Source: Escherichia phage M01. Taken from it: DNA of 45,294 bases. The stretch's first letter is position 1. Each line of letters opens with the position of its first letter. The notes beneath the pieces were generated by a model that was given only the letters and a program-made list of their open reading frames with translations, did not search any database and was not told the DNA's origin. Below, one piece after another: positions 4,160-45,135 of this stretch. The DNA lies in the sequence record OR061069, one strand, 5' to 3'. A program made the translations under genes and the position numbers.

Positions 4160-4165
4160 ATAGAA

Positions 4166-6283: not shown

Positions 6284-6336
6284 GCGCAAACTATTTGTTT
6301 ACGTATTCCGGTTATTCCACTCGAATTGTAAATGTT

Positions 6337-16000: not shown

Positions 16001-16026
16001 AATTATTTCCTCAGTAAGTTACAGGT

Positions 16027-16051
16027 GAATAGTACCCTATTATATTGGGGT
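16027..16051. promoter_or_regulatory. conserved 25-bp element copy C; minus-strand promoter of the 13439-16000 cassette
   Basis: minus-strand TATAAT about 40 nt upstream of ATG 16000. Confidence 0.55.
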
Positions 16052-16164
16052 GCGCAAGTAGTGTGTTAGAATAAGTTTGCGCCTAGTGTCGCACACGAAA
16101 AGCGGGTGGTTCCCGTCTGGCGCGTCAACCTTAACTTGTAACCTCTTAACCAAAGGATTAAATA

Positions 16165-25923: not shown

Positions 25924-25950
25924 TAAGGCCCCAAACGGGGCCTTTTCTCT
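25924..25950. terminator. bidirectional terminator between convergent late and replication operons
   Basis: aaggcccc-aaac-ggggcctt flanked by T-rich tracts. Confidence 0.6.
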
Positions 25951-28023: not shown

Positions 28024-28516
28024 GCCTTGAACTCCCCGAAGTATATTTCCGCGGCTCTTTGGTATACGCGCGACGCTTCTTCTATAGTATCAAAATAGCC
28101 AAGGTGGATGTATTTGTTGTTGACGCCTATTCTGGCGCGCCACCTGCCAGAGGGTATTTGGTAAACCCCTACCGCGCCGCTAGTGTTATGTGATGAGCAG
28201 TCTCGGTTCTGAATCTGCTGGCTCCTGGCTGCTGGCCTTATATTATTTATGGCGTTATTAGCCCTGTTACGGTCTTTATGGTCAAGCTCACCATTATGAT
28301 ATTCTCCGTAGACGAAAGCCCATGCCAGATGGTGGGCTTTTATTCTTACACCGGAGACTGTAATAACTATGTATCCTTTGTCGTTTGGCCCTCCGGCTAC
28401 CTCCCCGCATTTCTCCCTTTAATGCTTACTTTTCGTGTAAATATACCTGTTTCGGGGTCATAGTTAAGAAGACGTTTCGCCTCCTCAATATCAGGCCTTC
28501 TTGTTAATTTGTTCAT
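28020..28516 (-). CDS. HNH homing endonuclease with AP2-like domain, frameshifted
   Basis: HNH-type His cluster AHHLAW...DHKDRNRANN; AP2-like C-terminus; ATGA overlaps both sides. Confidence 0.55.
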
Positions 28517-28704
28517 TTCAACACCAGAACTAACTCTTTACGCCCAAACGCCGTAACGTTGCCGGTTACATCTTCAATAACCAGTTTACCGTTCGACTCT
28601 ACGTACACCGTATCAACGGCAACAGGGCGACGGGTCTTAACGTTGAAAATCATGTCGCCAGGTACGATGTCGCGTGCTGGTTTGCGGTCATATTCGTGTT
28701 TCAT
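28513..28704 (-). CDS. hypothetical protein (63 aa)
   Basis: RBS aaggaa; ATG 28704. Confidence 0.4.
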   Translation of the reverse strand: MKHEYDRKPARDIVPGDMIFNVKTRRPVAVDTVYVESNGKLVIEDVTGNVTAFGRKELVLVLK

Positions 28705-28734
28705 TTCTCAATTCCTTATATTGTTGGTGTAGGA

Positions 28735-29218
28735 CTAACTATAATAGCTCGCTATTAGGTCGTCAACCTGTTTAAACGAACCAACGACAAAAACATTAGC
28801 ACCGCGTTTACGCATCCGCTCATGCTCCCGTAACTGGTGCGGGTCTGGCTTCGTGTTTTCGTCTTTCTTCACCTCGACGAACCAGACGATGCCGCCGGGG
28901 AGAATTGCCAGCAGGTCGGGGGCGCCGGAGCGTCCTTCGTAGGAGAGCTTACGAACGAGGCCACCAATGGCCTCGAATCGGTCTTTGCGTATTTCTGTAT
29001 CTTGCCTTCCGGTGTCACAGCAAAGGCTCCGCATCTGGATTACGCAGGAAGTACGCTTGATAGATGTCGTGTTCCGAATAGTAAACGCCTTTGTGCGTGC
29101 ACCCCGCGCAAACGTCACTGAAGAACCCATCACCCATTACCATGATAAATTCCCATTCTGGCATATCCACCAACGCCGCTAGTTTCTTACTAAATGGCTT
29201 GTTACTCATAATACGCAC
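28735..29218 (-). CDS. VRR-NUC domain nuclease, frameshift near 29030
   Basis: motif GAPDLLAILPGGIVWFVEVKK. Confidence 0.55.
28738..28766 (-). promoter_or_regulatory. sigma70-like promoter with IR in spacer (-35 TTGACG, 17 bp, -10 TATAGT)
   Basis: IR aatag-ctcg-ctatt 28743-28756; overlaps last codons of VRR-NUC gene. Confidence 0.5.
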
Positions 29219-29292
29219 CCCTCACGTTTCGTATGCTCAACTACCGCAGCGCGGACAGATTCGACAGTCTTCTTCATAGAACCAGTAAATTT

Positions 29293-29424
29293 TCATTCCA
29301 GCACCCACAGATAAATTGCGATGAACATGCCCAATACGGCTACCATCATGCCGTATTGGCCCTCGTGACAGTAGACACCGGCAGCGAATCCCGCCAGTAC
29401 CGCGATAATCAGTTTACTTAGCAT
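29293..29424 (-). CDS. small membrane protein (43 aa)
   Basis: hydrophobic; ATG just after polymerase stop. Confidence 0.3.
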   Translation of the reverse strand: MLSKLIIAVLAGFAAGVYCHEGQYGMMVAVLGMFIAIYLWVLE

Positions 29425-31628
29425 AACGTTTTAACTCCTGCACCTTCCGCTACAAGAGGGAACCCCTCGGCCCACTCCGGCAATTCGCACATCAATTTTT
29501 CCAGTTCAGCCACCGTGTACTCAGGTAAGTCCGGAGTTTCACAGACTAATCTCATCGTGGACACGAAAGCACGATCGGGTAGCCGTCCGCCCTCAACATT
29601 CAATCAGTCGCATATAGCCAGCAAATCACGGCACAGCGCCTGAATGCAATGTTTTCGCAGAGCTTTGCCGCCGTGGGTGTACAGGGTAGTCCCCACTGGC
29701 GGGTTAACTGGTTTTCACCCTGATACTTGATTCGCACATTCGTGTTTACCCGTCCGTCTTCGTCTGTTTCCTTTGTCACACTAACGCCGATTCCCGGATA
29801 CGAGAGGATGCGACCCGACGGCAACTCCATACACAACCACCAACCAGGAACCTTCCTGCCGGATGAATCAAATTCTACAGTACGCCATATGCGGATAGCA
29901 CGCTACGCCATTCTTGCGCAGATGCGCCCCGCCGCAAAATTCACGACCAGGATTACGAACAGCAGCTAAAATTCCGTCTTTAAGGTCGCGCCAGAAAGCT
30001 ACTGTTTCAGGGTGAGACTCCCGCCACATACGCTTGATAGCGTCGCAGGTACGCCACACTTTCTTATCAAGAATATACGATGGTCGGTCATCCTTTTCAC
30101 CGGGATGTGGCGGTCGCTTTGCTTCCTGAATACGCGCCCACTCATACCCACGTGCGGTAGCAGCCCAGATGTGGTCGGGGAAAGTCCCGTCCATTGTTTT
30201 TGCCATCTCAATAAGGTCAAGACCTAAGTTTTTAGCAAACGTAACGAACGCTCCGACGCCCCCTCATAGCCGAGGCCAAGCTCGCAAGCCTTGCCTATCT
30301 GTCTGATTTCCTTGAAGTTTTTCTTAATATCATCTGGGTCCATGCCAAACATCTTACCCGCGGTTACATAGTAAATATCAACCCGGCGCGGAACGTATCA
30401 AACGCGGTTTCTCCCCAGCCAGCCACGCAAGCCCGCGACCTTCAACGTTAGAGTAGTCAGCAACAACAAACTTATGCCCTTCTTCCGGTATGATGCAGCT
30501 ACGCACGGTAGATGCCGTCAGTTTTGCCACATCGAAACGGCGATGCGCTCGGCCCTTAAGTAACGCTGAAATGCCTTTATCCAGTTCATCATCGTGATAG
30601 TACCCGCGTGCGAGATTCTGCGGCTGGAAGCCTTTACCCGCCCATCGCAGAGTACGTTTTGCCCCGCCATACTGTAAACAACCGCGACGGCGGTCGTCCG
30701 ACGAGCGGCCTAACAGCAGCGGGTTATATTTCGTTGATGCGGTGGACGCGGCCCCGAGGCGCATTTCGATAATCGTGCGGGCGTCGTCAGGTAAATCATC
30801 GTCCGCCAGCAGGTCATGAAGCGTTGACTTCTGCGCGTTGTGGATGCGGTGCGCGGGGGCGAGTTCACGCAGAATCGGCAGAAAGTCTTTACCGGTAAGC
30901 GAGCCGCCGTATTTGCGTTGGGCTTCTTCCTGTAACTGTGCCTTGTGCTTCTCCACGGCTTCAATCGCGGCTTCCGCCAGTGCAACGTCAACCTTAAACC
31001 CACGGTCATTGATTAACTGGTCAAGTTCCAGTACACGGTCCTCGAACTCGGAGTTACCCCAACGCGGCAGCTTATGAAAGACTTCACGCATCGCGGTGAT
31101 GTCGCTCACGGCGTACTTGATGAACAGCGCCCACTCGTCCGGGTGTGTTTCGGCGGTGTAACGGCGGATTTTGTAGTTCTTCGGTGTAGGTTTGGAGAAA
31201 CGCTGAATCAGCGCCTTGCCGCGTTTATCTTTCGCGTTGTCCGCGGATACGCACAAGCACTTCGCACAATGCATCGAGCGACCCCGGCAGCGCGTGACGA
31301 AACGCCCAAATCATCGTATCAATGGTGTTGCTTACCGGAATATCAAAGCCCCAGCAGTGCTTCATGATGAGCCTGTCGAACATTGAGCCGTTGTGCCACA
31401 CCATCTTAATGCGGCTGTTCGGCTTAACCAGGCGGCGTAAGTGCGCGGTGCAAATCACCCGGCATGTCGCTGCTGTCGGTGCAATCCCATACCCTGCACA
31501 GGCTCGTCGTCAAAAGCATAGGTACAGATTAGCACTTCGGTAGTTGGGTGTTCGGCATAAGCGTAGGAGCCGACTTTCTTTAAATCGGCTTCGGAGAATG
31601 TTTCAAAGTCCAGGTATAAGTAGCTCAT
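29418..31628 (-). CDS. family A DNA polymerase with 3-prime-5-prime exonuclease domain, at least five frameshifts
   Basis: Exo motifs LDFETFS and WHNGSMFD; polymerase motifs DYSNVEGR and RQIGKACELGLGYEGG spread over several frames. Confidence 0.75.
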
Positions 31629-31644
31629 TATTTTTGACCCTTAG

Positions 31645-31670
31645 TAAAAAAGGCCCAATGAAGGGCCTTA
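31645..31670 (-). terminator. intrinsic terminator downstream of SSB gene
   Basis: stem aggccc/gggcct with T-tract on minus strand. Confidence 0.5.
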
Positions 31671-31688
31671 GTTAAATTGATTCAGATA

Positions 31689-32315
31689 TTAGCGGCGACG
31701 ACGTTCGCGGCGCGGTGCTTCATCTTCTTCATCGTCTTCCAGGTCATCGACGCTTGCAGCGACTTTAGAACCGCCGAACGCTTTACCTTCGCCGACGTAT
31801 TTAATCGCCAGCAGGTTAACGCCGAGAACTTTATATTTCTGGCTGAACCAGATTTCAACGCTTACATTAGCAACGCAGCCGCTGTAAACCTGTTCACCTT
31901 CAATCTGTTCGCCGTCTACATTGAAGTCCTGCTCTACCTGAGTCTCGCCTTTTTTAGAGGTTACAATAAGCGGCTGTTTCTGCGCCTTCGCTTTGAAGTA
32001 GAAGCCTTCCGGGAAGTCTTCAAACGGATTGTCGCGCTCTGCAATATCTTTAATCGCGCATTTATCCATGTGCTTACCTTCGCCGTAGTTGGACTTCATC
32101 CATTTCTCGGCGGCGGCTGCGCCTAACGCTTCTTCGACTACAGCGTAAACGGTGTCGTAGAGCGCATCGATTTGAGCATGGTCCGACGGCAGGATAATGG
32201 TTGCACTGTACTGGCCTTTGGTGATTGAGCCATCATCGTTTTCACGGTCTTTTTCGCGTTCAAATACGTTAACCCATGCAGTGTTTACTTTACGCAGATT
32301 TAATTTCAGTCCCAT
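31689..32315 (-). CDS. single-stranded DNA-binding protein (T7 gp2.5-like, acidic C-terminus)
   Basis: acidic tail DDLEDDEEDE; overall pattern resembles gp2.5 from memory. Confidence 0.5.
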   Translation of the reverse strand: MGLKLNLRKVNTAWVNVFEREKDRENDDGSITKGQYSATIILPSDHAQIDALYDTVYAVVEEALGAAAAEKWMKSNYGEGKHMDKCAIKDIAERDNPFEDFPEGFYFKAKAQKQPLIVTSKKGETQVEQDFNVDGEQIEGEQVYSGCVANVSVEIWFSQKYKVLGVNLLAIKYVGEGKAFGGSKVAASVDDLEDDEEDEAPRRERRRR

Positions 32316-32376
32316 CTTAATTTCTCGCTTCTTCAGTTTTCAGTTTACTCCGGTAGCTGCCCGGCCAGTGATTAGA

Positions 32377-32405
32377 AATATAATAGCTAACTATTCAGGT
32401 GTCAA
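32377..32405 (-). promoter_or_regulatory. sigma70 promoter with IR in spacer (-35 TTGACA, 17 bp, -10 TATATT)
   Basis: IR aatag-ctaa-ctatt; upstream of SSB gene. Confidence 0.55.
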
Positions 32406-32435
32406 CCCTTCCAGCCAGTTATTTTCTCAACTATC

Positions 32436-32654
32436 TCAATATACTTGTTTGGCCATTTCATGTTGTTTATGAAACGTAAGCGCCTGTGTCTTCCACGATT
32501 TGTCGCTCAGGATGGCTTCGATGTCGCGTGTTCGCATTAGGCATATCGTAAGGCACGCTATGATAAATGTTGGTATCGTTAGCGGCGACATAAGAACCCA
32601 GAAAATAATACACGCTACAAAACCGCCAATTACTCTGAACATTTTACGAATCAT
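32436..32654 (-). CDS. small membrane protein
   Basis: two hydrophobic segments; ATGA overlap with exonuclease stop. Confidence 0.4.
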   Translation of the reverse strand: MIRKMFRVIGGFVACIIFWVLMSPLTIPTFIIACLTICLMRTRDIEAILSDKSWKTQALTFHKQHEMAKQVY

Positions 32655-33898
32655 TCCAAATCCTCCTCTGTTACCTGATTCCACTCAGGACGTTTGTCGT
32701 CCGCCGTTGCGACGCATGGCGCGCCTGGTTTACGGGTAATGAAGTCTTTCAGTTCTTCTTCCGGTATTACTTTAACCGCTTCGGTCGGCGTCATGAGCAC
32801 TTCTTTGGTCAGCTTGCCGCCGTATTTCTCGGCCACTTTCTCTGCGTCTTTCCACGCGCGATTACCCGGCCGACCCTCAACCAGCTTGTACCCCGGTACT
32901 TTCTTGCCAGAATGCAACGCGGCGGCCATAGCTTTCTCGACCTTGTCGATGTGCTGGCGCAACAACGGCAACTTCTCATACTCAGCCACGAGTTGCTCCG
33001 GTGTAAGTTCCAGTGCGAAATCGTCCTCCAGTTCTTCCGCCAGCGCCGCGTTAACCGTCTTTGTACGCGCTGCGCACTGTTCTGAGAACCGACACCACTG
33101 ACAGCCGTCGACAGACGGCCTGAAGTCCGACGCTTTCAGGTTCTTCTTGCCGCGGAAATACGCATCTAAGCGCTAACAGTGCACGTTTCTGCGCGAACTT
33201 AGCGAACAGTTCCAGACCTTCAACCGAGATGTCCCACTCCGACGCACCGCCAGCGTACGGCTGGAAGATGACCAGACGGACAACTGTGATGTTATAACGT
33301 CTCTTGAGTCGGCGATAAACACCGAGAGCGTAAAGCATAAGCTGCTTGTTTTCTTTCGCTTCGACACGATGCCGTCCTGTTTTCAGGTCGCCGATAATGA
33401 GCATGTGATCGTCGGTGTTCGCCAGCTCCTGAACGGCAACAAGGTCAGCGGTTCCGAACGTCTCGACACCTTCATAGCCCAGGATGCAATACCTCAGTAA
33501 GATTGACTCGCATTTCCAGCTTGGCGTAAGTCGCTACGTCGATAATCGCTTTGCAGTAGTCTGTGTACTTGCGCACCTGCTCAATCATATCCGCCGTAAT
33601 CAGTACCGCGCCCTTCATCGGGCTGATTAGCGCCTTAATCTGGCCTTTACCTTCATCAAGCACATAAGCACCGACTTCGCGCTCTAACGGCAGCGCAGTA
33701 CCGCGTGATATAGTGCGTTGAGATGTACCTCAGCTATTGTATGCATAGCTGTGCCTAACACGGCAGCTTTGCCGGACGTGTTAGGAATATCTTTTTCACA
33801 GGCCAGTGATGCACTGCACAGCTCAGCCACTTTTTAGCACCTGACGGCGATAGTAATGCGTGCACATCGTTATTGCCGCCGCGTTCTTTTAGAATCAT
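32651..33898 (-). CDS. PD-(D/E)xK exonuclease (Cas4/RecB-like) with C-terminal extension, multiple frameshifts
   Basis: motifs LSPSGAKKW, DLKTGR, Cys cluster CQWCRFSEQC across frames. Confidence 0.55.
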
Positions 33899-34243
33899 CG
33901 TAAACTCTCCAAATACAAGTTTAATGCCTGTAACTGTTCTTCTGTGGGAATGAAAGAATCATCGCGGTGTAAGTCGCTTAACTGTTGCAACATTCCTGCG
34001 AACTTACGTCTTGCGTCGACAGCGACCATGTGATGCTTTTCACTTTTGTATATTAATGTTTTCGGGTAATCCCTCAAGCCTGCCAGACGATTTATTCACT
34101 CGGAGCGCCCGAGCTTCATGCGCAATGTGTATGTACTTTTTACCGTTTTGTAGCACAGTAGCTACACCGCTGTTCTTTCTGCGGTCGCCGACGGTATAAA
34201 CTTTGTCGCCGCTGCGCAAATTAAGCCACCATTTATCAGTCAT
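33895..34243 (-). CDS. hypothetical protein, frameshift near 34050
   Basis: two overlapping ORFs in adjacent frames; ATGA overlaps. Confidence 0.3.
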
Positions 34244-34512
34244 GCTCTGTTCTCCCACTGGTCAATTAAATGTCTGGTCTTATGGTCGCAGTGCATAGCC
34301 CACCCATACATCGACTCGAAGACATAAAAGTCAGGTTTGGCGAATGTCGTGCGCTTAATCTGCGACACGTGACGGCCTATATCTTTAGGCCGCGGTACTT
34401 TGCCTAAGTACGCCATCTCTTCCATCTGGTGCGCACCCGACGGCGCACGCAACAGCCACAGAGCCTCTGTGTTATCCCGCCTGTCCACGGCAAGGTAGAG
34501 TTGGTAAATCAT
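34240..34512 (-). CDS. hypothetical protein (90 aa)
   Basis: ORF track. Confidence 0.4.
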   Translation of the reverse strand: MIYQLYLAVDRRDNTEALWLLRAPSGAHQMEEMAYLGKVPRPKDIGRHVSQIKRTTFAKPDFYVFESMYGWAMHCDHKTRHLIDQWENRA

Positions 34513-34823
34513 TGTGCCTTCTCCTGCATTTCCAGAAAGACTATCATGGCCGCGCGGAGTGGCTTGCCATAGGCAACACCCACTTCTGTATCGTCGTCGT
34601 TAAATAAATCCCGAGCGTTTGACGTCGCACACGGCATTGTCGGGTTATCTAAAATAAGGCTGATGTTGTTTTCTTCAATAATAGGCCACGCATCCTCTAT
34701 CCGATTACAATAGTCTACCGCCCCAGAAGCTAACTCCATCTGATGTCCTCGAGAAACATCGCCGTATAGCGTACGGCTAACCCGTGCATTAATTTCTATG
34801 TCTGTTAAATTTTCGTAGTTCAT
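34509..34823 (-). CDS. hypothetical protein (104 aa)
   Basis: ORF track. Confidence 0.4.
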   Translation of the reverse strand: MNYENLTDIEINARVSRTLYGDVSRGHQMELASGAVDYCNRIEDAWPIIEENNISLILDNPTMPCATSNARDLFNDDDTEVGVAYGKPLRAAMIVFLEMQEKAQ

Positions 34824-34865
34824 AATTCCGACCCCAGTTAAAGCGGCCCGAAGGCCGCCGGATAG

Positions 34866-35356
34866 TTATTCTTCTTCGAAATACTTGTTCTTGATTGCCG
34901 TCAGGCGCTCCAGGTATTCAGCCAGGTCTTCGTCTTTAATCGCGGCAATCTTCATCTTCTTACCGGTGAACTCCTCCAGCAGTTCATCGGAATCATCGCA
35001 CGCAGCATCACTAGGACCTTCATTAATCGCATCGTCGATGGCCTGAATCTGGTCACGAAGAGACTGGTAATCGACTTCTTCTTTCACTTCTTCCGGTTCT
35101 GGCGTTGGTTCCTCTACTTTAGCTTTACGCTGCTTGCGTTTCGGCTTTCTTCTTCTGCTGGTTGAGTGTCGACGGTGTCTTCACCTTCTACCGGGATTTC
35201 TTTTGTTGTTTTTCGCAACAGTAGGTCTCGATTGTTGCAGTTTCGCGCACCACTGCGACGGATAGCTTCGGCAGTTCGGTCGGCGCACTGTTCGCTGCAA
35301 TAATTTCGTGCGCAACTACGAAACGTTCCAGTAATACTAAGAATTGTCTCTAACAT
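34866..35356 (-). CDS. hypothetical protein with Cys-rich N-terminus and acidic C-terminus, frameshift near 35100
   Basis: two ORFs in adjacent frames. Confidence 0.35.
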
Positions 35357-35390
35357 TTGTTTCTCTCCTGTTTATTTATATTTAACGGTT

Positions 35391-35522
35391 TTAACTAACT
35401 GACTCTGTTACTTTGTCGAAGAAGCCAACACGATTGTTGCTCACGCGATAGCGCGCAGTTTCTTTAACCCCGAATGCTATATCAAGTCCTAACAGAATCT
35501 TTGCTTTGCGGTTGTTAATCAT
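35391..35522 (-). CDS. hypothetical small protein (43 aa)
   Basis: first ORF downstream of promoter 35554-35582. Confidence 0.25.
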   Translation of the reverse strand: MINNRKAKILLGLDIAFGVKETARYRVSNNRVGFFDKVTESVS

Positions 35523-35553
35523 TTGTTTCTTTCCTCTCATTTGGTATGGGCTA

Positions 35554-35582
35554 ACTATAATAGCGAACTATTCACATGTCAA
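35554..35582 (-). promoter_or_regulatory. sigma70 promoter with IR in spacer (-35 TTGACA, 17 bp, -10 TATAGT)
   Basis: IR aatag-cgaa-ctatt. Confidence 0.55.
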
Positions 35583-35600
35583 TTGGCTTTTCTAAAATAA

Positions 35601-35627
35601 TTAATATGGTACTATTCACATATCAAC
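35601..35627 (+). promoter_or_regulatory. putative promoter/operator of HTH regulator gene (degenerate IR copy)
   Basis: ggtactattca half-site; -10-like TAATAT 35602-35607; divergent from 35554-35582. Confidence 0.4.
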
Positions 35628-35646
35628 TGACTAAGGAGTAATTGAC

Positions 35647-35862
35647 ATGCAACCATCTGAACTAGGCATTCGTGTAGAACAACGCCGTAAAGAACTCGGC
35701 ATCTCACAGCGCCGTCTGGCTGTCCTGGCCGGCGTTTCCCAGGGTGCGATTAACCAGCTCGCACTCGGGGTAACTCAGGACGTCCGCCCGGCAACGCTGT
35801 TTAAACTGGCGGAAGTGCTGCAAGTAGACGCCAAGTGGCTGGCGTTCGGTGAAGGGGCTTAA
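35647..35862 (+). CDS. XRE-family HTH transcriptional regulator (Cro/CI-like, 71 aa)
   Basis: HTH QRRLAVLAGVSQGAINQL; flanked by operator-like repeats. Confidence 0.6.
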   Translation: MQPSELGIRVEQRRKELGISQRRLAVLAGVSQGAINQLALGVTQDVRPATLFKLAEVLQVDAKWLAFGEGA

Positions 35863-35878
35863 CGCCCCTTTCTTTTTA
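35852..35878. terminator. intrinsic terminator after HTH gene
   Basis: aggggc-ttaac-gcccct then TTTCTTTTT. Confidence 0.5.
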
Positions 35879-35879
35879 C

Positions 35880-38122
35880 CTATTCCAAATCCTCCTCTGT
35901 AACCACCAGCATTTCATTTGGTTCGTATATTGTCTTCGGTCTTAATCTGTCACCCATCTTTTCCGGTATCCGGTATGTGCCTGGCATAACTTCACCGTTA
36001 ACATCGCACCCGAGCATCAACTCCCCGTCTTTCAGCATCTTCTCGAGATGGTGGTTGGTGATGGCGTGGTCGCCCGAGTTCGCTACTATCTGCCGTTGGG
36101 TAAAACCTCGTCCGGTGTCGTTAGACTGTTGCAGGTCTTCCAGCGCGGCGAGTATGGATTCCTTACGTCCTCCATCCTTCCCACGTTTTACGGCATTCTT
36201 TACGTTTTCTTTACCTTCCTTTGTTATGCCTTCTTCCCGCTCTTTCTCCTCGTCAGTTTTGAACGGTTCGAAGCCCCACGGCATCAGCACAAGCGCCTTG
36301 TGAGGCTCAGGCAGGTCGAGGTTTACGATTGTGCCATATTCCTCGGTGCTACCCAGGAACTCAACAGCACGGTATTCTTTCGGCGGCGGGGCTTCACGGA
36401 ACTGTACGGACTCCAGAACCATACCGACAGTTTTCTGTTGAGGCCCGTGCTTAAATTTAGAGTGGTATACATTTATTTGACGGTCGGTTGCACGTTCGAT
36501 TGTCAGTTCCACGTCGACACCTGCATACAGTGCCCCGCTGCCACGGGCTTTCTTTCCCCCTTCGGCGTATGATGGACAACACCTACCGCGGCTTTAGTCG
36601 CGTCGCGTACTTCTTTCAGGATGGCGATAACTTTACCCATGCCGATTGCCGTTGATGAACTGTTCTCGTCAAACTTATCAATCGTCAGGGCCAGCGTCTG
36701 GTTGAGGGTGTCGAACGCGACCATACCGATTGGCTCGTCGCCAGCAGTTTCGCGCATTAACTTAATCAGGTTTTTCAGTTTGCGCGAGACTTCGCCCATA
36801 TCAATGACATGTATGTAATCTTTACCTTCCTCGCCGTATTTAGCCGCGAGCGCGTCAATACGTGTGCGTGTAGCAGCGCCACCCTCACCGTCGATATAGA
36901 AGTGATGACAACGCTGGGTATCAGCCCCCGCAAACCGGTATCCGGCGGCGCTGAGATACATCATCCCCAGAGTATAAAACGATTTGTACGTGCCAGATTC
37001 CCCGACAATATCCCATATGCAATCCGACGGCATGTACCCTTCAACGACGAAATCAGCCTTTACCGGTTCTGGTAACTCGTCCTCCTCTGAGTCCTCGTCG
37101 TCTTCCAGGTCGTCGAGGCTGCATGAAACGGATTCACGCACACCCCAGCCGATTGCCTCAGCGACTTCACTGAACGGTAGCCCGGTCGCATCACACGCAT
37201 ACTTCCACACCTCTTTCGGTGACATGCCTTCGGTCGCCGTAATGTCGGTGTCGTGAATCATTGTTACGTTAGGCGCTTCGTACCCTTCACGCGGGAAACA
37301 CAGCAGGAAGTCGTCCGGGCGCGGCGTCGGGTCGCTGTAGTTTTCTGCGTGTTCTGGCGTAGCTGGCATCTTTAGGCCACGCGGCGTCATGATGCCACCG
37401 TACTCGAACGCCAGTGCCTCAAACGCATCTGTAAACGCGGTGCGCAGTTCTTCCGGTATCTGGTAGTCAGATGCGCTGCTGATGTCAACGGCTGGGACGC
37501 CTTCCAGTAACTCATCAGGGTCAATCAGGTCGTTGCGGCGCGACCAGATAACAGTAGAGCCAACTGGCGGCAGGTACATCGGCTGCGACAGAGTGAACCC
37601 GCTGCGGTCCGCGCCCATGCCTTTGAAGAAGTGCTCCAGTAATCCATGGCGAACACGGATGATGTCGCCACCTTCAACCGGGCGGGCCAGCGGCATGACG
37701 ACGCGAAAGCGCGGCGACTCGTCGGTATGTGATGCCGTGGTGTAGAGACACATCGCCTGGCGGCTGCGCTTAACCAGGCGCACCGCTTCCTGATACTCTT
37801 CCGGTGTTGCGCTGTCGAAGTCCAGGTACGCCAGCGAAGATTTGCTTACAGACGCATCACAGCGATAGAAGAAGCCTTTACGCGCTTGCTTAAAGTCGCC
37901 TGTTTCCGGGTCTTTTACGGTGCTGTGTGTGGAGTCGCACGCGGCGGTGATATAACCGGGTGCGGTCTTCGGGTTAATTCCGTCACGGACAGCATCAAGC
38001 GGCTGGATTAAATCTTTCAGGTCGCCCAGCGTTGCCGTGTGTGTGGTTCTGACGTTTATATCCTTTTTCTCCGCCCGCGCGTTGCGACGAGACCACGAGT
38101 AGGATAAAATTACATCGGACAT
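35880..38122 (-). CDS. primase-polymerase / RecA-fold helicase fusion, frameshift near 36510
   Basis: Walker A GESGTYKS, Walker B MVAFDTL, HHTPK motif; N-terminal AEP-like AYLDFD. Confidence 0.7.
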
Positions 38123-38180
38123 GTTATATTTCCTTCAGCAAGTAATTTAGCCTCGGCGTTCACCGCGTCGGGGCTTTCTT

Positions 38181-38413
38181 TTATTCCAGGTCTTCTAAAG
38201 TAGCGGTCATTCCGCGAACTTCGGCAACAGCACTATATTTCCCGCCAACATTTTTCACGACACCAGATTTAACCAGTACCTTCAACGACCCTTCAATAAT
38301 GGCGGAACTATAGTACCTAAAATAACTACGGCGCAAGTCCATAACGCTGCACGACCCTTTTTACAGGTTAATGAAACGACTGCCGTAAATACGCGGGACT
38401 GGAACTCGGTCAT
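38181..38413 (-). CDS. hypothetical protein, probable frameshift; boundaries uncertain
   Basis: good RBS ggagaa; ATGA overlap with upstream HTH gene. Confidence 0.2.
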
Positions 38414-38581
38414 TTTACATTCTCCTTAATCCACGCTTCCACTTTCTCCGGGTCGAAAGTACCCGGCTGCCGGCGGCCCATAATACGGATACAACAATCC
38501 GGGAACTTCCCACTCTTTAACCAGTTATTCAGCGTGCGGCGAGTAACCCCGATACGCTCAGCTACTTCATTCTGTGTCATT
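38410..38581 (-). CDS. HTH DNA-binding protein (excisionase/MerR-like fold)
   Basis: motif TQNEVAERIGVTRRTLNNW. Confidence 0.5.
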
Positions 38582-38608
38582 CTCAAACCCCCATTATCAG
38601 TTAACGAA

Positions 38609-38640
38609 ACCAAGTATACATTGCGAATAATGGGAAATCA
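38609..38640 (-). promoter_or_regulatory. sigma70-like promoter (-35 TTGATT, 17 bp, -10 TATACT) for HTH/primase-helicase operon
   Basis: read on minus strand. Confidence 0.4.
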
Positions 38641-38657
38641 AACATAATCGCACCTAT

Positions 38658-38955
38658 TGACATTATGAAAATCTTCGTTTAAGGTGCTTCTGTATCTTAG
38701 TTACTTTGATTCCTGTTCACCTTGTAAGAATGTTTAACCGAAAACGTGCGTCAACGCAAAGTGTTAAGCGACAGGCTTACTGAACATTCGAGAATTATCG
38801 TAACTTTCCTTCCTAAGTATCTCCGGTTGCCCTGGGCAAGCTCTATTCTCATCGGCAGCATATCTCTTAAGTATCTGATTTTCTTAAAGTGCCGTAGATT
38901 CGCAACCGTAAAAATGTAACGATTATTGGGCAGGCTTAGGGCCTGCCCTTTAGTT
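38658..38955 (+). other. noncoding region: plus-strand promoter-like TTGACA 38658-38663, direct repeats TAAGTATCT (38814-38822, 38868-38876), terminator 38928-38955
   Basis: no ORF of 60 aa or more; adjacent to replication genes. Confidence 0.3.
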
Positions 38956-39042
38956 ACCAAGTAATAAGAATAAAGGCACAACCCTACCTGAAGAATCACA
39001 ACGGCAACGTAACCATTTTCAATGAATCTCTTGCACACCCCA

Positions 39043-39068
39043 ACATAATAGGATACTATTCACTTATC
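39043..39068 (+). promoter_or_regulatory. promoter with IR copy (-10 CATAAT, aatag-gata-ctatt)
   Basis: same architecture as copies A-C; upstream of ATG 39094. Confidence 0.45.
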
Positions 39069-39093
39069 GAAACGAGACATAAGGAATTCAGAA

Positions 39094-39312
39094 ATGAACA
39101 AAGCGACTGCAAGCGTGGTTTCCGCAATCAGAGAAGTTTACGGCATCGATATTTCAGAGCGCGTAATTATCGGGAACAAACGCAACTTCTTTACGTTCGA
39201 CACCGACGGAATGGATGAAAATGATTTTATTAACGTACAACGTTTCGCCATCGGTAAAGGGCTCCGTAACGAGCCTGCAGGTTACAAGAAATTCGCTATC
39301 TACTTTAAATAA
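39094..39312 (+). CDS. hypothetical protein (72 aa)
   Basis: RBS aaggaa; ORF track. Confidence 0.4.
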   Translation: MNKATASVVSAIREVYGIDISERVIIGNKRNFFTFDTDGMDENDFINVQRFAIGKGLRNEPAGYKKFAIYFK

Positions 39313-39330
39313 GACAAAGGGGTGAGGGTT

Positions 39331-39516
39331 ATGTTTAAGAAAGGTCAGTTGGTTAGGGATAAATTTAGCGGCGATTTATTCACTGTAATAGAGTCGAAGC
39401 TAATGTGGTTCGGTTTTGTTGAGGTTAATAGCGTAGCTGGGTTTGGTAAAGGACTGCTCCGTAAATGCGATTTAACACTCATCGGCAACAATTTTAAATT
39501 CAAAGGGGCGAAGTGA
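39331..39516 (+). CDS. hypothetical protein (61 aa)
   Basis: RBS aaagggg; AT-rich. Confidence 0.35.
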   Translation: MFKKGQLVRDKFSGDLFTVIESKLMWFGFVEVNSVAGFGKGLLRKCDLTLIGNNFKFKGAK

Positions 39517-39840
39517 TGGAAGAATTAATTTGCGTTGAATCAAGTCAAATGTGAGCGTGAGTTTGAAGTCAGGTAACAAGTATTCGTACGGCGGTATATT
39601 ACAACGACCTGATTACGATTATGTTATTGGTGAAGACAGTGATGCGAATGGGTTTAGTTGACGCAGTTCGGAGACTGATGACCGTTCGGTATATTTGATG
39701 GTGGACTGAGAGCCTCATTCACAACGGCATCGAATCATGATGCTCGTGCCGACGACTCTGAGGGAGGTTGCCGTGAATAATTACCCGTTTATTTTAATTG
39801 TCAGCGCCGTTTATGCGGTGCACGCGTTGTGGGGGTTGGT

Positions 39841-40044
39841 ATGGTAGCCGCGGGATATGCTGTACATCTCTATTGTGATTGCGATGAGTGTAATTCAAAA
39901 CAATGGAGTATGCCGGACTCAGGGGAGTATACCGGGGAAACGTGGTCCGAGTGTGCAAGGCAAGCAAGGTCCGACGGTTGGGTGATAAGCAAAGACAGAA
40001 CACGGTGCTATGCCCCTGGGCACAATGTTAGACGCAGGAGTTGA
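39841..40044 (+). CDS. Cys-rich hypothetical protein (possible zinc-binding)
   Basis: CDCDEC...C...C pattern; GTG 39829 alternative start. Confidence 0.4.
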   Translation: MVAAGYAVHLYCDCDECNSKQWSMPDSGEYTGETWSECARQARSDGWVISKDRTRCYAPGHNVRRRS

Positions 40045-40047
40045 GTT

Positions 40048-40239
40048 ATGAAAAATTATGATGCGACTAAGTTTGACCAGGCGTTACTAATTAACAAGTT
40101 CTATGAAAGATACCCTTTGTCTGAGTTTAAAACAGATTCTGAAAGAGCCGAAGCACTTGGATATTTTATGGCTGGCGCCGAGTTGCAAAGGCTTGGAGAT
40201 TTCATAGTGTACCCTGACTTAGAAGACGATGAGGACTAA
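40048..40239 (+). CDS. hypothetical acidic protein (63 aa)
   Basis: RBS aggag. Confidence 0.4.
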   Translation: MKNYDATKFDQALLINKFYERYPLSEFKTDSERAEALGYFMAGAELQRLGDFIVYPDLEDDED

Positions 40240-40242
40240 GTT

Positions 40243-40434
40243 ATGAGAATTCGTATAACAGAGGTGAACAGTTTTCAACCCGCACACTATGGTGACCATC
40301 CCCTATACCATTTTGGCGTGGCCGTCGGGGATGAGTTTGAGGTTGTAGATGTGCATGGGTACGGGTTTATCGTCGAAACTGATGATGGACCGTTATTCAT
40401 TAGACGTGGTGAATGTGAAGTTCTGGAGGACTAA
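40243..40434 (+). CDS. hypothetical acidic protein (63 aa)
   Basis: ORF track. Confidence 0.4.
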   Translation: MRIRITEVNSFQPAHYGDHPLYHFGVAVGDEFEVVDVHGYGFIVETDDGPLFIRRGECEVLED

Positions 40435-40437
40435 GTT

Positions 40438-40581
40438 ATGAGAGAAGCATTCGAACGGTGGGCTGTCGTCGAGGGTCTGCCGGTTAACAAAGGTTCAAAG
40501 AAAGAGTACCTGAACGTTAAGACGCGTCTAGCGTGGCGGGCGTGGAAAGCTGGTGTGCAAGCTGTGATGAATACGAGGTGA
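40438..40581 (+). CDS. hypothetical protein (47 aa)
   Basis: ATG 40438, stop 40579-40581. Confidence 0.3.
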   Translation: MREAFERWAVVEGLPVNKGSKKEYLNVKTRLAWRAWKAGVQAVMNTR

Positions 40582-40584
40582 GAT

Positions 40585-40785
40585 ATGGGTAAGTGGATTA
40601 AGTGCAGTGAGCAGATGCCCGCTCCTTTCTCTCATGTACTTGTGACTGATGGGGGAGAGGTTGAGATTAAATGGTTCGATGATGATTCGGATGAGTGGGA
40701 TAGTTGGGATGAATTCAACTCTGTCATAGACAACGAGGATATAACGCACTGGAGGAAATTGCCTAAACCGCCGAAACTGGTGTAA
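40585..40785 (+). CDS. hypothetical protein (DUF551-like pattern)
   Basis: W-rich acidic pattern with C-terminal HWRKLPKPP. Confidence 0.4.
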   Translation: MGKWIKCSEQMPAPFSHVLVTDGGEVEIKWFDDDSDEWDSWDEFNSVIDNEDITHWRKLPKPPKLV

Positions 40786-40920
40786 CAGGTCAATAGGTTA
40801 CTATTTGACTGAGTGACTTACGCTGCTACACAGCAGCGTACAACTTTAGATTAGTGTCGTCAAAAAGCGACACTTTCACCGAACGCAACAATAGAAGCGA
40901 TTATTGCAGGAGATGCAACA

Positions 40921-41151
40921 ATGAAACTAACGAAACGACAGGCAGAGACCCTACGGGAAATAGCGAACGGCAGAACTATGCTCATGGGCAGGTTCGACCG
41001 TTACTGGTGGCAAGATTCTGATGAGTTATGCACTATGGTCGCCAGACGCCTCCGTAGTAAAGGGCTTATAAGAACCGTGTACCTCAATGCTGCTCGTGAT
41101 GTGGTTCAGATAACCGGAGCGGGTGAAAGCGAGTTACTAAAACACCAATAA
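40921..41151 (+). CDS. hypothetical protein (76 aa)
   Basis: ORF track. Confidence 0.4.
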   Translation: MKLTKRQAETLREIANGRTMLMGRFDRYWWQDSDELCTMVARRLRSKGLIRTVYLNAARDVVQITGAGESELLKHQ

Positions 41152-41169
41152 AATTTACTTGCACACTGA

Positions 41170-41199
41170 GATAGAATAGACTACTATTCATTTACACAA
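41170..41199 (+). promoter_or_regulatory. promoter with IR copy (-10 TAGAAT, aatag-acta-ctatt)
   Basis: upstream of ATG 41218. Confidence 0.45.
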
Positions 41200-41217
41200 A
41201 CGAGAGGGAGAGAGAAT

Positions 41218-41754
41218 ATGAGTAACAAAAACGAAGTATTCGAGTACCTGATTGACCAGTTACGGCAGCAGGTAAATAAGAAAGATGTCACATCTTTCAG
41301 TGTGTCTGTGCGGATATCCGACCTTGATGAGGTCAAGCAGGTAATTCACAACCTACAGCAGCATATCGCTGGTAAGGATGACGAAATACGGGCGCTGAAA
41401 GACAGTTTACGCCGGCAGGCGGATAACAACCTGTACAAGCAACAGTGCGAAGACCTGGCGCATGAGGTGCAGTCACTTAAGAATCAGTTACGTGACGCGT
41501 CGGCGCAGATTAAGGAGTTGCATCTTGCATTGGCTACAGCTACTGGTGACGTGGAGGCGTACAAACTTATCCGTAAAGGTGGGCGCATTTCTGATGGTCA
41601 GAGCTACGTAGTAGGTGAACACGGACCTGAGCAATCTGGTTGCTGTAAGGAAGACGTGAGGCTGTCTGTATGCCAGTGCGTTCCTGCCCACTGCGGAACT
41701 TACCACGGCAATATCGTAGTCTGCGATAACCGCGGCGGGGTTATACCCGAATGA
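41218..41754 (+). CDS. coiled-coil protein with Cys-rich C-terminus
   Basis: 178 aa; RBS gagggagagag. Confidence 0.45.
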   Translation: MSNKNEVFEYLIDQLRQQVNKKDVTSFSVSVRISDLDEVKQVIHNLQQHIAGKDDEIRALKDSLRRQADNNLYKQQCEDLAHEVQSLKNQLRDASAQIKELHLALATATGDVEAYKLIRKGGRISDGQSYVVGEHGPEQSGCCKEDVRLSVCQCVPAHCGTYHGNIVVCDNRGGVIPE

Positions 41755-44362: not shown

Positions 44363-44380
44363 CTATTTTCTGCAATGACT

Positions 44381-44416
44381 AGTTGACTATTACCTTACGA
44401 CCCTATTATATTTACT
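44381..44416 (+). promoter_or_regulatory. sigma70 promoter (-35 TTGACT, -10 TATATT) with half IR
   Basis: ccctattatatt matches right half of 25-bp element. Confidence 0.5.
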
Positions 44417-44445: not shown

Positions 44446-44595
44446 ATGAAAATCACAGATATCGAAGCCTTCAAAGACGCACAACTGATGGCACGCATCG
44501 CCGTTGGTAACCTGAGCAACAGCATTCCAGCGGACGCGTTCTGGTTCGCCGCGATGCAGACACTGAAAGCAGCTTATGCAGGAGAGAAGAAATGA
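44446..44595 (+). CDS. hypothetical small early protein (49 aa)
   Basis: RBS ggagtagagaag. Confidence 0.4.
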   Translation: MKITDIEAFKDAQLMARIAVGNLSNSIPADAFWFAAMQTLKAAYAGEKK

Positions 44596-44789
44596 AAGTT
44601 AAAGCCGCTAAAATTCTCTGGTTAGCCACCCTTGACTATGTGACAGAGGGTAAAGTGTATGATGTATACAACCCGACAGCTACTGGTTTCGGTTATATAG
44701 TCTCCGACGACGACTGCGATATTTTCATAGACTTTGGTAACGATGAAGGTGATGGTTTCCACGGCGTTAAATGGGAGGTTGTAGAATGA
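44592..44789 (+). CDS. hypothetical acidic protein (65 aa)
   Basis: ATGA overlap. Confidence 0.4.
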   Translation: MKVKAAKILWLATLDYVTEGKVYDVYNPTATGFGYIVSDDDCDIFIDFGNDEGDGFHGVKWEVVE

Positions 44790-44941
44790 GCGAACAAGGT
44801 CAAGTAAGCCAACCATTACGAGTAGGCCGCAAAGTTAGTCACACCCCGTTCCCTACACGCGAGGAACTGATGAAACGTAACAGTTTCCCTGGGCCGGACA
44901 AGAACAAGTATCTCAATCGCATGTGGGGAGAGAAGAAATGA
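44786..44941 (+). CDS. hypothetical protein (51 aa)
   Basis: ATGA overlap. Confidence 0.35.
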   Translation: MSEQGQVSQPLRVGRKVSHTPFPTREELMKRNSFPGPDKNKYLNRMWGEKK

Positions 44942-45135
44942 CTGACCGCGAATACGAAAAGATGATGGTAGAGGCTGTTAACGGCGGCGTAGACATCAGC
45001 CACGTGATGCACGTCCTGAATACTAAAATCGCTGTAGCTGAACAAATGGTAGAGTCGCTTTACGAGACACGTCGTGAACTGATTAACCGCTTCAACCTTA
45101 ACAAAGCCTCCGGTGATGGGTATGAAAGCGCCTGA
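44938..45135 (+). CDS. hypothetical protein (65 aa)
   Basis: ATGA overlap. Confidence 0.4.
   Translation: MTDREYEKMMVEAVNGGVDISHVMHVLNTKIAVAEQMVESLYETRRELINRFNLNKASGDGYESA

Follow-up and report, generated by a model that had tools for sequence, protein, structure and literature searches.

A recurrent 14-bp dyad over the host-type promoters of a virulent Kagunavirus, a probable operator for its 434-Cro-like protein

Introduction

Which protein, if any, recognises the inverted repeat AATAG-N4-CTATT that recurs at promoters of Escherichia phage M01 (record OR061069), and what does it do there? An earlier note, made from the letters of the sequence, read the repeat as the operator of a dimeric repressor and named two helix-turn-helix (HTH) proteins of the phage as candidates. 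The window analysed here is the whole stretch of 45,294 nucleotides. It belongs to a strictly lytic siphovirus of the genus Kagunavirus (Guernseyvirinae).

Results

The dyad is 14 bp long. The window has nine exact copies of it, where 100 dinucleotide-preserving shuffles average 0.04 and never exceed 1. The repeat described in the earlier note thus holds up, and its set is larger than listed there. When up to one mismatch is allowed there are 14 sites where 1.07 are expected. When every 4-6 nt palindrome with a spacer of 0-10 nt is enumerated without bias, the dyad ranks first in the window, a terminator hairpin being the sole other recurrent palindrome. The dyad also heads the ranking in Kagunavirus and Jerseyvirus loci, sharing first place in a few. 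Of the nine exact copies, eight fall strictly between genes and the remaining one lies within the final codons of a gene. At least nine host-type promoters are overlain by the dyad, and three imperfect copies stand in promoter contexts besides the nine exact ones (Table 1).

Table 1. Dyads, the promoters they overlie and candidate binding proteins
Feature	Coordinates	Strand	Elements	Genes served and remarks
Class A promoter	28738-28766	-	TTGACG-17-TATAGT; dyad 28743-28756	sigma-70 match 10/12; drives 28513-28704 and SNF2-type helicase block; orthologues found
Class A promoter	32377-32405	-	TTGACA-17-TATATT; dyad 32382-32395	sigma-70 match 11/12; drives ssDNA-binding (DUF2815) and DNA polymerase genes; orthologous dyads in L002, L004 and L003
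Class A promoter	35554-35582	-	TTGACA-17-TATAGT; dyad 35559-35572	sigma-70 match 11/12; footprint, 35 distinct sequences; drives leftward operon from 35540 (small ORFs, Cas4-like nuclease)
Class B promoter	39031-39060	+	TTGCAC (39031-39036)-17-TACTAT (39054-39059); dyad 39047-39060	drives rightward small-ORF cluster from 39094
Class B promoter	41159-41188	+	TTGCAC-17-TACTAT; dyad 41175-41188	drives 41218 onward, in direction of lysis genes
Class B promoter	6260-6289	-	TTGCGC (6289-6284)-17-TACTAT (6266-6261); dyad 6260-6273	drives small leftward island, with exonuclease-like gene in relatives; dyad orthologue at L002 5591, upstream of gp07
Back-to-back overlapping promoters	16018-16057	both	common dyad 16028-16041; minus (class B), TTGCGC (16057-16052)-17-TACTAT (16034-16029); plus (16018-16046), GTTACA-17-TATATT	minus, leftward accessory island 16000-13439; plus, faces tail-chaperone and tape-measure genes
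Back-to-back promoters	4499-4539	both	common dyad 4510-4523; minus, TTGCAG (4539-4534)-17-TACTAT (4516-4511); plus (4499-4528), TTGATG-18-TATATT	minus, 4475-4194; plus, faces head-morphogenesis gene at 4584
Orphan exact dyad	40792-40805		AATAGGTTACTATT	abuts TTGACT, then hairpin GCTGCTACACAGCAGC
Imperfect dyad	35603-35616	+	AATAT-GGTA-CTATT	over own promoter or start site of Cro-like gene
Imperfect dyad	44378-44412	+	ACTAG-TTGA-CTATT overlapping -35 of TTGACT-18-TATATT (44383-44412)	match 10/12; upstream of nin-like genes and terminase
Imperfect dyad	6352-6385	+	AATAG-TTGA-CTTTT overlapping -35 of candidate TTGACT-17-(TGc)TAAGCT (extended -10)	promoter called by eye, under scanner threshold; upstream of spanin, scaffold and capsid genes
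71-aa 434-Cro-like HTH (XRE/HTH_3) gene	35647-35862	+		candidate repressor; Pfam HTH_3 E=1.2e-12
HTH_17 (excisionase/MerR-like) gene	38410-38580	-		alternative binder, disfavoured; Pfam HTH_17 E=2.1e-7

The dyad is carried by two promoter architectures. Class A is a strong TTGACA-17-TATAGT promoter with the dyad inside the spacer. Its three minus-strand members were correctly placed by the earlier note, down to the 17-bp spacing and the dyad in the spacer. Within 26-45 kb they rank as the top three sigma-70 matches, and in each the dyad begins 4 nt past the -35 and reaches as far as the first T of the -10. Eighteen different N4 sequences occur among class A dyads.

Class B, whose consensus was built from 68 distinct sequences, reads TTGCRC-17-TACTAT with the dyad covering the -10 TACTAT. 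Three plus-strand copies had been described as lying over the -10; those at 39047 and 41175 are exact and contain TACTAT, but the one at 35603 is imperfect. All the copies listed in the earlier note are real, but it missed exact ones at 40792, inside the range it considered, and at 4510, 6260 and 16028, outside it, where the set reaches into the structural module. These last are an identical AATAGGGTACTATT on the minus strand, in the structural-gene half. The Jerseyvirus orthologue of the bidirectional 16028 site is symmetric, with TTGCAT-17-TATTAT and TTGACG-17-TATTAA.

The orphan dyad at 40792-40805 has no recognisable core promoter; it is kept in Kagunaviruses, and TGGTGTAACAGG repeats lie upstream. 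The imperfect dyad at 35603 is 44 bp, centre to centre, from that at 35559, and the candidate promoters there are TTCACA-16-TAAAAT (35571-35598) and an extended -10 TGgTACTAT (35606-35614). Among 35 distinct Kagunavirus and Jerseyvirus upstream sequences its right arm, GTACTATT, is 100% conserved and its left arm variable; it is proposed to be a weak autoregulatory operator. A weak operator is likewise proposed at 44378, where the Jerseyvirus orthologue has its mismatch in the opposite arm.

The dyad is kept at orthologous sites in Kagunavirus and Jerseyvirus. Across 35 distinct sequences from these genera the half-sites do not change, unlike the central 4 bp; CTATT in the spacer of the leftward promoter is 100% conserved and the central N4 40-70%. 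Sigma-70 has no sequence requirement in the promoter spacer. The dyad sequence stays fixed as its offset from the -35 varies, being 4 or 5 nt in class A and, in class B, 10 nt in the window, 7 nt in the Jerseyvirus orthologue and 7-10 nt in Pantoea phage AH01. In AH01 the motif is AATAC-N4-GTATT (10 sites against 0.99 expected; 0 copies in the window) and in STP-1 it is AWTAS-N4-STAWT (5 sites against 0.47 expected), in both cases at equivalent promoters. Neither a conserved host factor nor a sigma-70 requirement is compatible with such symmetric half-site switches, and their occurrence in distant relatives argues for a co-evolving, phage-encoded dimeric binder. Invariant half-sites, a variable centre, a variable offset and symmetric lineage variants are what the operator reading calls for, and it passes every computational test available.

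The protein encoded at 35647-35862, the first candidate of the earlier note, is the favoured binder. Its best sequence match in the PDB is 434 Cro (E=4.9e-7, residues 6-68), its nearest solved relative. An AF2 model (pLDDT 84, five helices) returns 2cro and 1pra as top Foldseek matches, 434 Cro aligning with a TM of 0.72-0.78 at ~40% identity. The gene is monocistronic with its own terminator at 35851-35871. It had been placed between two divergent copies of the dyad; instead it adjoins both, and in every case two dyads and a divergent promoter region adjoin it. The protein is found in 6/6 Guernseyvirinae-type genomes tested and is the only HTH protein common to all six. In Smarc3 the protein is present and a recognisable dyad family was not found. 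The Gln aligned with Gln28 of 434 Cro is invariant, and the half-site keeps its outermost A in all lineages. Between Kagunavirus and Jerseyvirus the proteins share only ~52% identity and their recognition helices differ (SQGAINQL versus SQSLITHL), yet both genera share the AATAG half-site, so that covariation of protein and DNA is not one to one. In temperate phages, full-length CI repressors with homologous HTH domains adjoin ATAAC-N4-GTTAT triplets of the same geometry.

Discussion

Taken together, the dyads are probably operators to which the phage's 434-Cro-like protein binds as a homodimer. We infer binding, repression rather than activation, and timing as follows. Host sigma-70 RNA polymerase would initiate at both promoter kinds, class A driving the leftward replication and recombination operons and class B the rightward cluster of small ORFs together with three leftward accessory islands within the structural module. 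With rising levels of the Cro-like protein, one dimer would occupy each 14-bp site by way of its two recognition helices (SQGAINQL). The occupied stretch would run from about -25 to -12 in class A promoters and from about -20 to -7 in those of class B. Bound there, the protein would keep RNA polymerase off the promoter and lower its activity, like Cro at PL and PR. At 4510 and 16028 a single dyad on the axis of fully overlapping divergent promoters may silence both, and the imperfect operator at the protein's own promoter may give negative autoregulation at higher protein concentration. If all dyad promoters are repressed, including the plus-strand ones at 4510 and 16028, late transcription needs another source. 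A search of the Guernseyvirinae literature returned data on binding, reporters or transcripts for none of these phages.

Other readings account for part of the data. The Cro-like protein might have a dual role, repressing class A and activating, or setting direction, at class B and the bidirectional promoters, in the manner of restriction-modification (R-M) controller (C) proteins or of CI at PRM. The class B -35 TTGCRC has only 3/6 consensus positions yet is strictly conserved, so an activating role there is possible; the class B dyad sits 5 bp (half a helical turn) downstream of the class A position; C.AhdI, C.BclI and C.Esp1396I are among the structural neighbours of the protein; and late operons need promoters past each bidirectional terminator. 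However, the class B dyad covers the -10 itself, where known activators do not work, and with spacers at the optimal 17 bp MerR-type spacer remodelling is unneeded. A dual role is unlikely.

The dyad could also be the operator of another phage protein, such as HTH_17, NinH or an unrecognised DNA-binding protein, many small ORFs being without annotation. HTH_17 has a DNA-binding fold and is 87% identical between Kagunavirus and Jerseyvirus, tracking the common dyad better within that pair. As the second candidate of the earlier note it has fared poorly: neither HTH_17 nor NinH is significantly matched in AH01, a phage with a clear dyad regulon, and HTH_17 is absent from STP-1 and has no significant match in Smarc3. 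Its operon promoter (38641-38613) has no dyad, against two adjoining the Cro-like gene. HTH_17/excisionase-type proteins are not generally known to bind 14-bp palindromes as symmetric dimers. We regard a different phage binder as quite improbable.

A by-product of promoter symmetry without a dedicated binder, or a site for a conserved host factor, is very improbable. The -10-like hexamers TACTAT and TATATT do overlap or abut the dyad arms, and promoter matches on the two strands fall together at 4510 and 16028; but class A promoters keep invariant even the arm that falls entirely within the spacer, and the orphan at 40792 has no promoter. Sigma-70 does not account for the symmetric G-to-C switch in AH01, where GTATT is no better a -10, or for AWTAS in STP-1, nor do host factors common to Enterobacterales account for these variants.

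Kagunavirus genome papers using PHIRE describe the motif as a phage promoter, with seven PHIRE promoters in one case (PMC7203180) and seven copies of tgAATAGTa-ccTATTat-T for 'the phage-encoded RNA polymerase' in another (PMC9825357). The motif does coincide with promoters, but a promoter for a phage-encoded polymerase or sigma factor is scarcely credible: no phage RNA polymerase is encoded (all proteins of at least 370 aa in fPoEco01, a well-annotated relative, are assigned otherwise), no sigma-factor domain is among the 25 families listed of 33 matched for 42 small proteins, canonical sigma-70 hexamers stand 17-18 bp apart at the dyad sites, and a directional polymerase promoter does not predict a perfect palindrome, a variable -35 offset or the promoterless copy at 40792. 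The single-subunit phage RNA polymerase reading is refuted by gene content.

Comparison with known systems

The PHIRE motif of the Kagunavirus papers (fBC-Eco01, Golestan) is the same sequence as the dyad, in seven copies (PMC9825357); dyad symmetry, the two architectures, the link to the Cro-like gene and the lineage variants are not noted there. The C-proteins of R-M systems, such as C.AhdI and C.Esp1396I, are small, autoregulatory XRE-fold dimers whose dyad operators overlap their own promoter. They use paired operators (OL/OR) and activate, then repress, one operon, unlike the single dyads found here at many promoters outside any R-M context.

P22 C2 is a weaker relative in sequence and fold. 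In its operators a core of ...AAG-N4-CTT... is conserved, and the central spacing equals that of the dyad. In lytic growth lambda Cro lowers early transcription from PL and PR, the role proposed for the Cro-like protein, although its fold differs. P22 and lambda are temperate and Cro acts in a bistable switch against CI, whereas a lone, one-way turn-down is proposed here.

The 434 operators are 14 bp long with a 5-N4-5 layout, ACAAn-N4-nTTGT, and a non-contacted centre. Phage 434 Cro (PDB 2CRO, 3CRO) has 71 aa, as does the protein studied here, and is its best match in both sequence and fold. The two systems share a 14-bp site whose outer positions are conserved and whose central 4 bp vary, overlap with sigma-70 promoters, and a divergent region with two sites adjoining the gene. 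The half-site is AATAG here and ACAA in 434, and the phage has no CI partner, tripartite OR1-3/OL1-3 arrays or lysogeny module. In place of these, single putative operators lie over at least nine promoters genome-wide, including the structural module, in a virulent phage. A familiar type of switch, Cro/operator control, would be unusually widespread across a virulent phage genome.

The dyad and its promoters

The inverted repeat AATAG-N4-CTATT occurs exactly nine times in the window, against a mean of 0.04 and a maximum of 1 in 100 dinucleotide-preserving shuffles, so that the repeat described in an earlier note on this DNA withstands the shuffled control. Allowing one mismatch raises the number of sites to 14, where 1.07 would be expected. 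When all palindromes of 4-6 nt with 0-10 nt spacing are enumerated in the window, this dyad comes out as the top family, and apart from it only a terminator hairpin recurs. All but one of the nine exact copies are strictly intergenic. The sites listed in the earlier note are real, and its three minus-strand promoters, which were placed exactly, are the best three sigma-70 matches in 26-45 kb. Two of its plus-strand copies (39047 and 41175) are exact and the third (35603) is imperfect, while the exact copies at 4510, 6260, 16028 and 40792 had been overlooked.

The dyad is found in two promoter architectures. In class A (TTGACA-17-TATAGT type) it begins 4 nt past the -35 hexamer and shares its final T with the start of the -10 element, which places it at about -25 to -12. 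Downstream are leftward operons for replication and recombination. In class B the hexamer TTGCRC is followed by 10 nt and the dyad, with the -10 element TACTAT inside the right arm and coverage of about -20 to -7. Among 189 distinct site contexts of both classes from 51 genomes and contigs, the consensus is TTGACa-N4(5)-AATAG-N4-CTATTATAGT for class A and CTTGCACAC-N8-AATAG-NNTA-CTATTCA...AACGAGA for class B. Both classes fit the layout of sigma-70 promoters, with -35- and -10-like hexamers 16-18 bp apart ahead of a gene that has a Shine-Dalgarno sequence. Class A sites match sigma-70 at 10-11 of 12 hexamer positions and are the top scanner matches; they are predicted promoters. The predicted class B promoters match at 3/6 and 5/6 positions with 17-bp spacing, which is under the scanner threshold, and are strictly conserved and followed by a Shine-Dalgarno sequence and an ATG.

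Dyad-associated promoters, their targets and recurrent elements in the window
Feature	Position	Strand	Basis or detail
Class A promoter TTGACA-17-TATAGT	35582-35554	-	sigma-70 scan
Class A promoter TTGACA-17-TATATT	32405-32377	-	sigma-70 scan
Class A promoter TTGACG-17-TATAGT	28766-28738	-	sigma-70 scan
Class A operon genes			Cas4-like nuclease, DUF2815-type ssDNA-binding protein, DNA polymerase A, VRR-NUC, SNF2 helicase
Class B rightward targets	39094, 41218	+	small-ORF clusters
Class B leftward targets	4475-4194; around 6216; 16000-13439	-	accessory islands in structural module
Promoter TTGATG-18-TATATT	over dyad 4510	+	scanner
Promoter GTTACA-17-TATATT	over dyad 16028	+	scanner
Imperfect dyad on -35 (TTGACT)	44378	+	promoter facing nin-like/terminase genes
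Imperfect dyad on -35 (TTGACT)	6352	+	promoter facing capsid genes
Orphan exact dyad	40792		no core promoter
Hairpins AAGGCCCC-N3/4-GGGGCCTT	4165-4184, 6095-6115, 13415-13434, ~25925-25946, 31650-31669		near-identical; 31650 is a shorter variant
Shared leaders	4476-4510, 28704-28742	-	past dyad promoters
Shared leaders	39060-39096, 41188-41220	+	past dyad promoters

The sites at 4510 and 16028 look like fully overlapping divergent promoters with one common dyad. In the Jerseyvirus orthologue such promoters are near-symmetric between the strands (TTGCAT-17-TATTAT and TTGACG-17-TATTAA). Both junctions lie directly past the bidirectional terminators that end each leftward island. The recurrent hairpins, several of which are called as terminators on both strands, stand where plus- and minus-strand gene blocks converge, except for the 31650 copy inside the leftward replication block. 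These hairpins resemble bidirectional terminators that would insulate the leftward islands, and the same family is carried by the Pantoea phage AH01 and the Serratia phage Smarc3. Leaders past the dyad promoters share the elements …AAACGAGAG…ATAAGGAATTnAGAAATG, as if cassettes of promoter, leader and Shine-Dalgarno sequence had been duplicated around the genome. The orphan dyad is conserved across Kagunaviruses (region 40770-40850; 14569-14592 in the comparison sequence L012), with one or two copies of the direct repeat TGGTGTAACAGG upstream, occasionally a degenerate third, and the hairpin GCTGCTACACAGCAGC downstream. This region may serve as a regulatory node, as an origin of replication or in packaging.

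Genome context

The window is a Kagunavirus of the subfamily Guernseyvirinae, virulent siphoviruses related to the Salmonella Jerseyviruses. It equals PQ474795.1 (Escherichia phage vB_Eco_AMO_3701M) in length and differs from it by 3,204 substitutions and no indels; the nearest genome after that is CR01, with 96.7% identity. The differences from PQ474795.1 are biased to transitions and frequent at third codon positions. Many genes are split: the DNA polymerase (29418-31628) is represented by six CDS, and terminase, capsid and helicases are likewise broken. The split genes and the many indel-free substitutions together suggest a frameshift-rich or reference-guided assembly, and gene calls in the window are therefore unreliable. 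Since the deposited annotation is fragmented, functions are assigned via the well-annotated relative fPoEco01.

Relics of a lambdoid nin region are present upstream of the terminase genes at 371-607 and 44446-45135, both on the plus strand (NinH; NinX, DUF2737 and DUF551 in relatives). Together with a gene for a Cro-like protein (35647-35862, plus strand), they hint at a virulent lineage derived from a temperate lambdoid or P22-like ancestor. The operator and cro cassette has no prophage copy in 5,426 complete E. coli genomes, consistent with a strictly lytic lifestyle. The sole match in these genomes is a 35-nt segment inside the Cro-like gene (35810-35844, 97% identity), which is annotated as CRISPR in strain 2017.09.02CC (NZ_AP025214.2) and looks like a spacer against this gene.

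A probable binding site within the promoters

Four results argue for the dyad as a protein-binding site: its conservation, its footprint, its variable register and its symmetric switches between lineages. It is found at orthologous positions in fPoEco01, CR01, the Jerseyvirus horsemountain and IMG/VR contigs of Kagunavirus and Jerseyvirus, and in these contigs it is the top or joint top palindrome with no pre-selection. In an alignment of the region upstream of the Cro-like gene (35 distinct sequences, picked by position and not by motif) the half-sites are invariant, and conservation falls to 40-70% at the four central bases and tails off in the flanks. CTATT is conserved at 100% despite its position in the spacer of the leftward promoter. 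Class A sites carry 18 different central tetranucleotides. The register relative to the -35 varies while the dyad sequence stays constant: class A promoters have 4 or 5 nt between the two, and class B promoters have 10 nt in the window, 7-10 nt in AH01 and 7 nt in the Jerseyvirus orthologue.

The fourth result comes from the more distant relatives. Equivalent promoters of AH01, a distant member of the Guernseyvirinae, carry AATAC-N4-GTATT, with five exact and five one-mismatch copies, a total for which 0.99 would be expected; no copy of this variant is found in the window. The Salmonella phage STP-1 and its relatives have AWTAS-N4-STAWT sites, five of them exact against 0.47 expected. A symmetric change of both arms over a whole promoter set is predicted by a co-evolving dimeric protein and not by sigma-70 or an Enterobacterales-wide host factor. 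A dyad of about 14 bp with conserved outer bases, a variable centre and overlap with -35 or -10 elements has the features of a 434-type operator. The proposal of the earlier note that the dyad is a dimeric repressor operator is thus sustained by comparative sequence evidence.

The candidate binder

The earlier note had named two helix-turn-helix (HTH) proteins as candidates. A scan of 42 small non-structural fPoEco01 proteins finds clear HTH domains in just these two, the XRE-type gp48, which is the Cro-like protein, and the HTH_17 protein gp51 (38410-38580, minus strand in the window), along with a weak match in NinH. By tblastn the Cro-like protein is present in all six genomes tested, whereas HTH_17 is confined to Kagunavirus and Jerseyvirus and NinH is absent from AH01 and Smarc3. 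HTH_17 is disfavoured as the binder because it is absent from AH01, STP-1 and Smarc3, and the Cro-like protein is favoured from its distribution. The Cro-like protein matches Pfam HTH_3 (E=1.2e-12). Its best phmmer matches in the PDB are 434 Cro, which like it has 71 residues (E=4.9e-7), the 434 repressor (E=1.2e-5) and P22 C2 (E=2.6e-3). A single-sequence AF2 model (pLDDT 84) predicts a five-helix fold, with helices at 5-17, 21-28, 32-39, 48-57 and 62-66 and the second and third forming the putative HTH. The top Foldseek matches of this model are 2cro (434 Cro) and 1pra (434 repressor) with TM 0.72-0.78. The gene, a monocistronic cassette, has a terminator of its own, and in each lineage it lies in a divergent promoter region with two dyads, an imperfect one over its own promoter, apart from Smarc3, where there is no clear dyad.

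The amino acid aligned to Gln28 of 434 Cro is an invariant Gln, and the outermost A of the half-site is invariant too. At helix position 5, Asn or Thr occurs with G at half-site base 5, and Gly or Ser with C or S. This protein-DNA covariation is suggestive. It is not one to one, as AATAG is the half-site in both Kagunavirus and Jerseyvirus although their proteins are only about 52% identical and have different recognition helices; a one-to-one code between this residue and base 5 is no more than suggestive with so few independent lineages. In temperate contigs the homologous HTH domains of full-length CI repressors adjoin three ATAAC-N4-GTTAT dyads of the same geometry, and the temperate lambdoid Klebsiella phage RCIP0098 has the homologue annotated as Cro, between CI and CII. 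This phage informs the ancestry of the protein and was set aside as a Guernseyvirinae comparison. Smarc3 has a Cro-like gene in the same position and four copies of GATTGC around the divergent promoters (region 36640-36810). It has no AATAG-type dyad family and no clear dyad near the XRE gene, and the repeats may mark a further shift of specificity or geometry. No further relatives of this type were found in viral contigs.

On these comparisons, the dyads are probably operators of the Cro-like repressor. A live rival gives the same protein a dual role as activator and repressor, like the C-proteins of R-M systems. The published reading differs in kind. The motif itself is already known: the fBC-Eco01 genome paper used PHIRE to find seven copies of tgAATAGTa-ccTATTat-T and read them as promoters of a phage-encoded RNA polymerase (PMC9825357), and the Golestan paper gives seven PHIRE promoters (PMC7203180). 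Gene content contradicts this attribution, as the genome encodes no RNA polymerase. The large fPoEco01 proteins are all tape measure, tail, tailspike, DNA polymerase A, primase-helicase, SNF2 helicase, portal or nuclease proteins, and no sigma-factor domain is among the 25 families listed, of 33 matched, for the 42 small ones. MerR-type activation is rejected on spacer length, which is 17 bp in the window, or reads as 18 bp in some relatives, and not the over-long 19-20 bp of MerR-type sites. A role as an RNA or DNA hairpin is unlikely, since the class A dyad lies upstream of the predicted start and the stem has just five A/T-rich pairs.

Proposed regulation

Upon entry, host sigma-70 polymerase would fire all dyad promoters. 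The Cro-like protein would then accumulate and bind the dyads as a dimer, as co-occurrence and the lineage-specific half-site changes suggest, and exclude polymerase at -25 to -12 (class A) and -20 to -7 (class B). This would turn down early, replication and accessory-island transcription. In lambda, Cro lowers transcription from PL and PR. The imperfect operator over the promoter of the Cro-like gene would provide negative feedback. At bidirectional junctions a single dimer could silence both directions, sparing collisions between leftward-island and rightward-late transcription. Late transcription may originate at the promoters that carry imperfect operators, at 44378 and 6352. No dyad accompanies the sigma-70-like promoter (38613-38641, minus strand, TTGATT-17-TATACT) of the leftward operon for HTH_17, a small ORF and the primase-helicase, which may escape the proposed repression.

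A wider and more doubtful reading is that in strictly lytic Guernseyvirinae the Cro-like protein is the solitary relic of a lambdoid immunity region and has become a genome-wide master regulator acting on at least ten dispersed single operators. These would include operators on the symmetry axis of overlapping divergent promoters at junctions of islands and late operons, and the grades of operator (perfect, imperfect and half) would time the order of shut-off. The relic part is hinted at by the nin-region genes that the genomes keep. If this reading is true, the half-site switches (AATAG, AATAC and AWTAS) would keep the regulators of co-infecting relatives from acting on one another's genomes, and phages relevant to therapy would be vulnerable to, or engineerable with, matching repressors.

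Relation to known systems

Among candidates for phage therapy and biocontrol, Kagunaviruses and Jerseyviruses are some of the most commonly isolated, and they have been proposed as synthetic-biology chassis. Their sole reported recurrent regulatory motif has been credited to an RNA polymerase that is not encoded, and annotations of "transcriptional repressor" raise doubts about lysogeny. A 2026 Kagunavirus paper states that repressor genes are absent (PMC12919940). The literature search on Guernseyvirinae found neither an operator or Cro reading nor transcriptome work. Reading the dyads as Cro operators would account for a repressor-like gene in a strictly lytic phage and would provide a testable wiring diagram of promoters, co-regulation and a knock-out target. 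It would also make available a compact, orthogonal family of repressors and operators that varies naturally in specificity. As a mechanism this is textbook, and the conceptual surprise is modest.

Phage 434 operators are 14 bp long and follow a 5-N4-5 pattern in which the centre is not contacted, and the dyads have the same geometry. By predicted fold and operator geometry the protein fits the 434 Cro/CI-type repressor family, and the system would work like 434 or lambda Cro. Because CI, tandem OR1-OR3 and lysogeny genes are missing, it does not qualify as a lambdoid immunity switch: neither CI nor an S24 protein is found among the annotated or the 42 small scanned proteins of fPoEco01. In the lambdoid immunity region CI is divergent from cro and OR1-OR3 stand in tandem, whereas here the divergent neighbour is the replication-side operon and there are just two dyads, 44-45 bp apart. 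A full CI with three tandem dyads is found in temperate relatives elsewhere. What is distinctive here is the spread of operators over the whole genome, which is unusual in a virulent phage.
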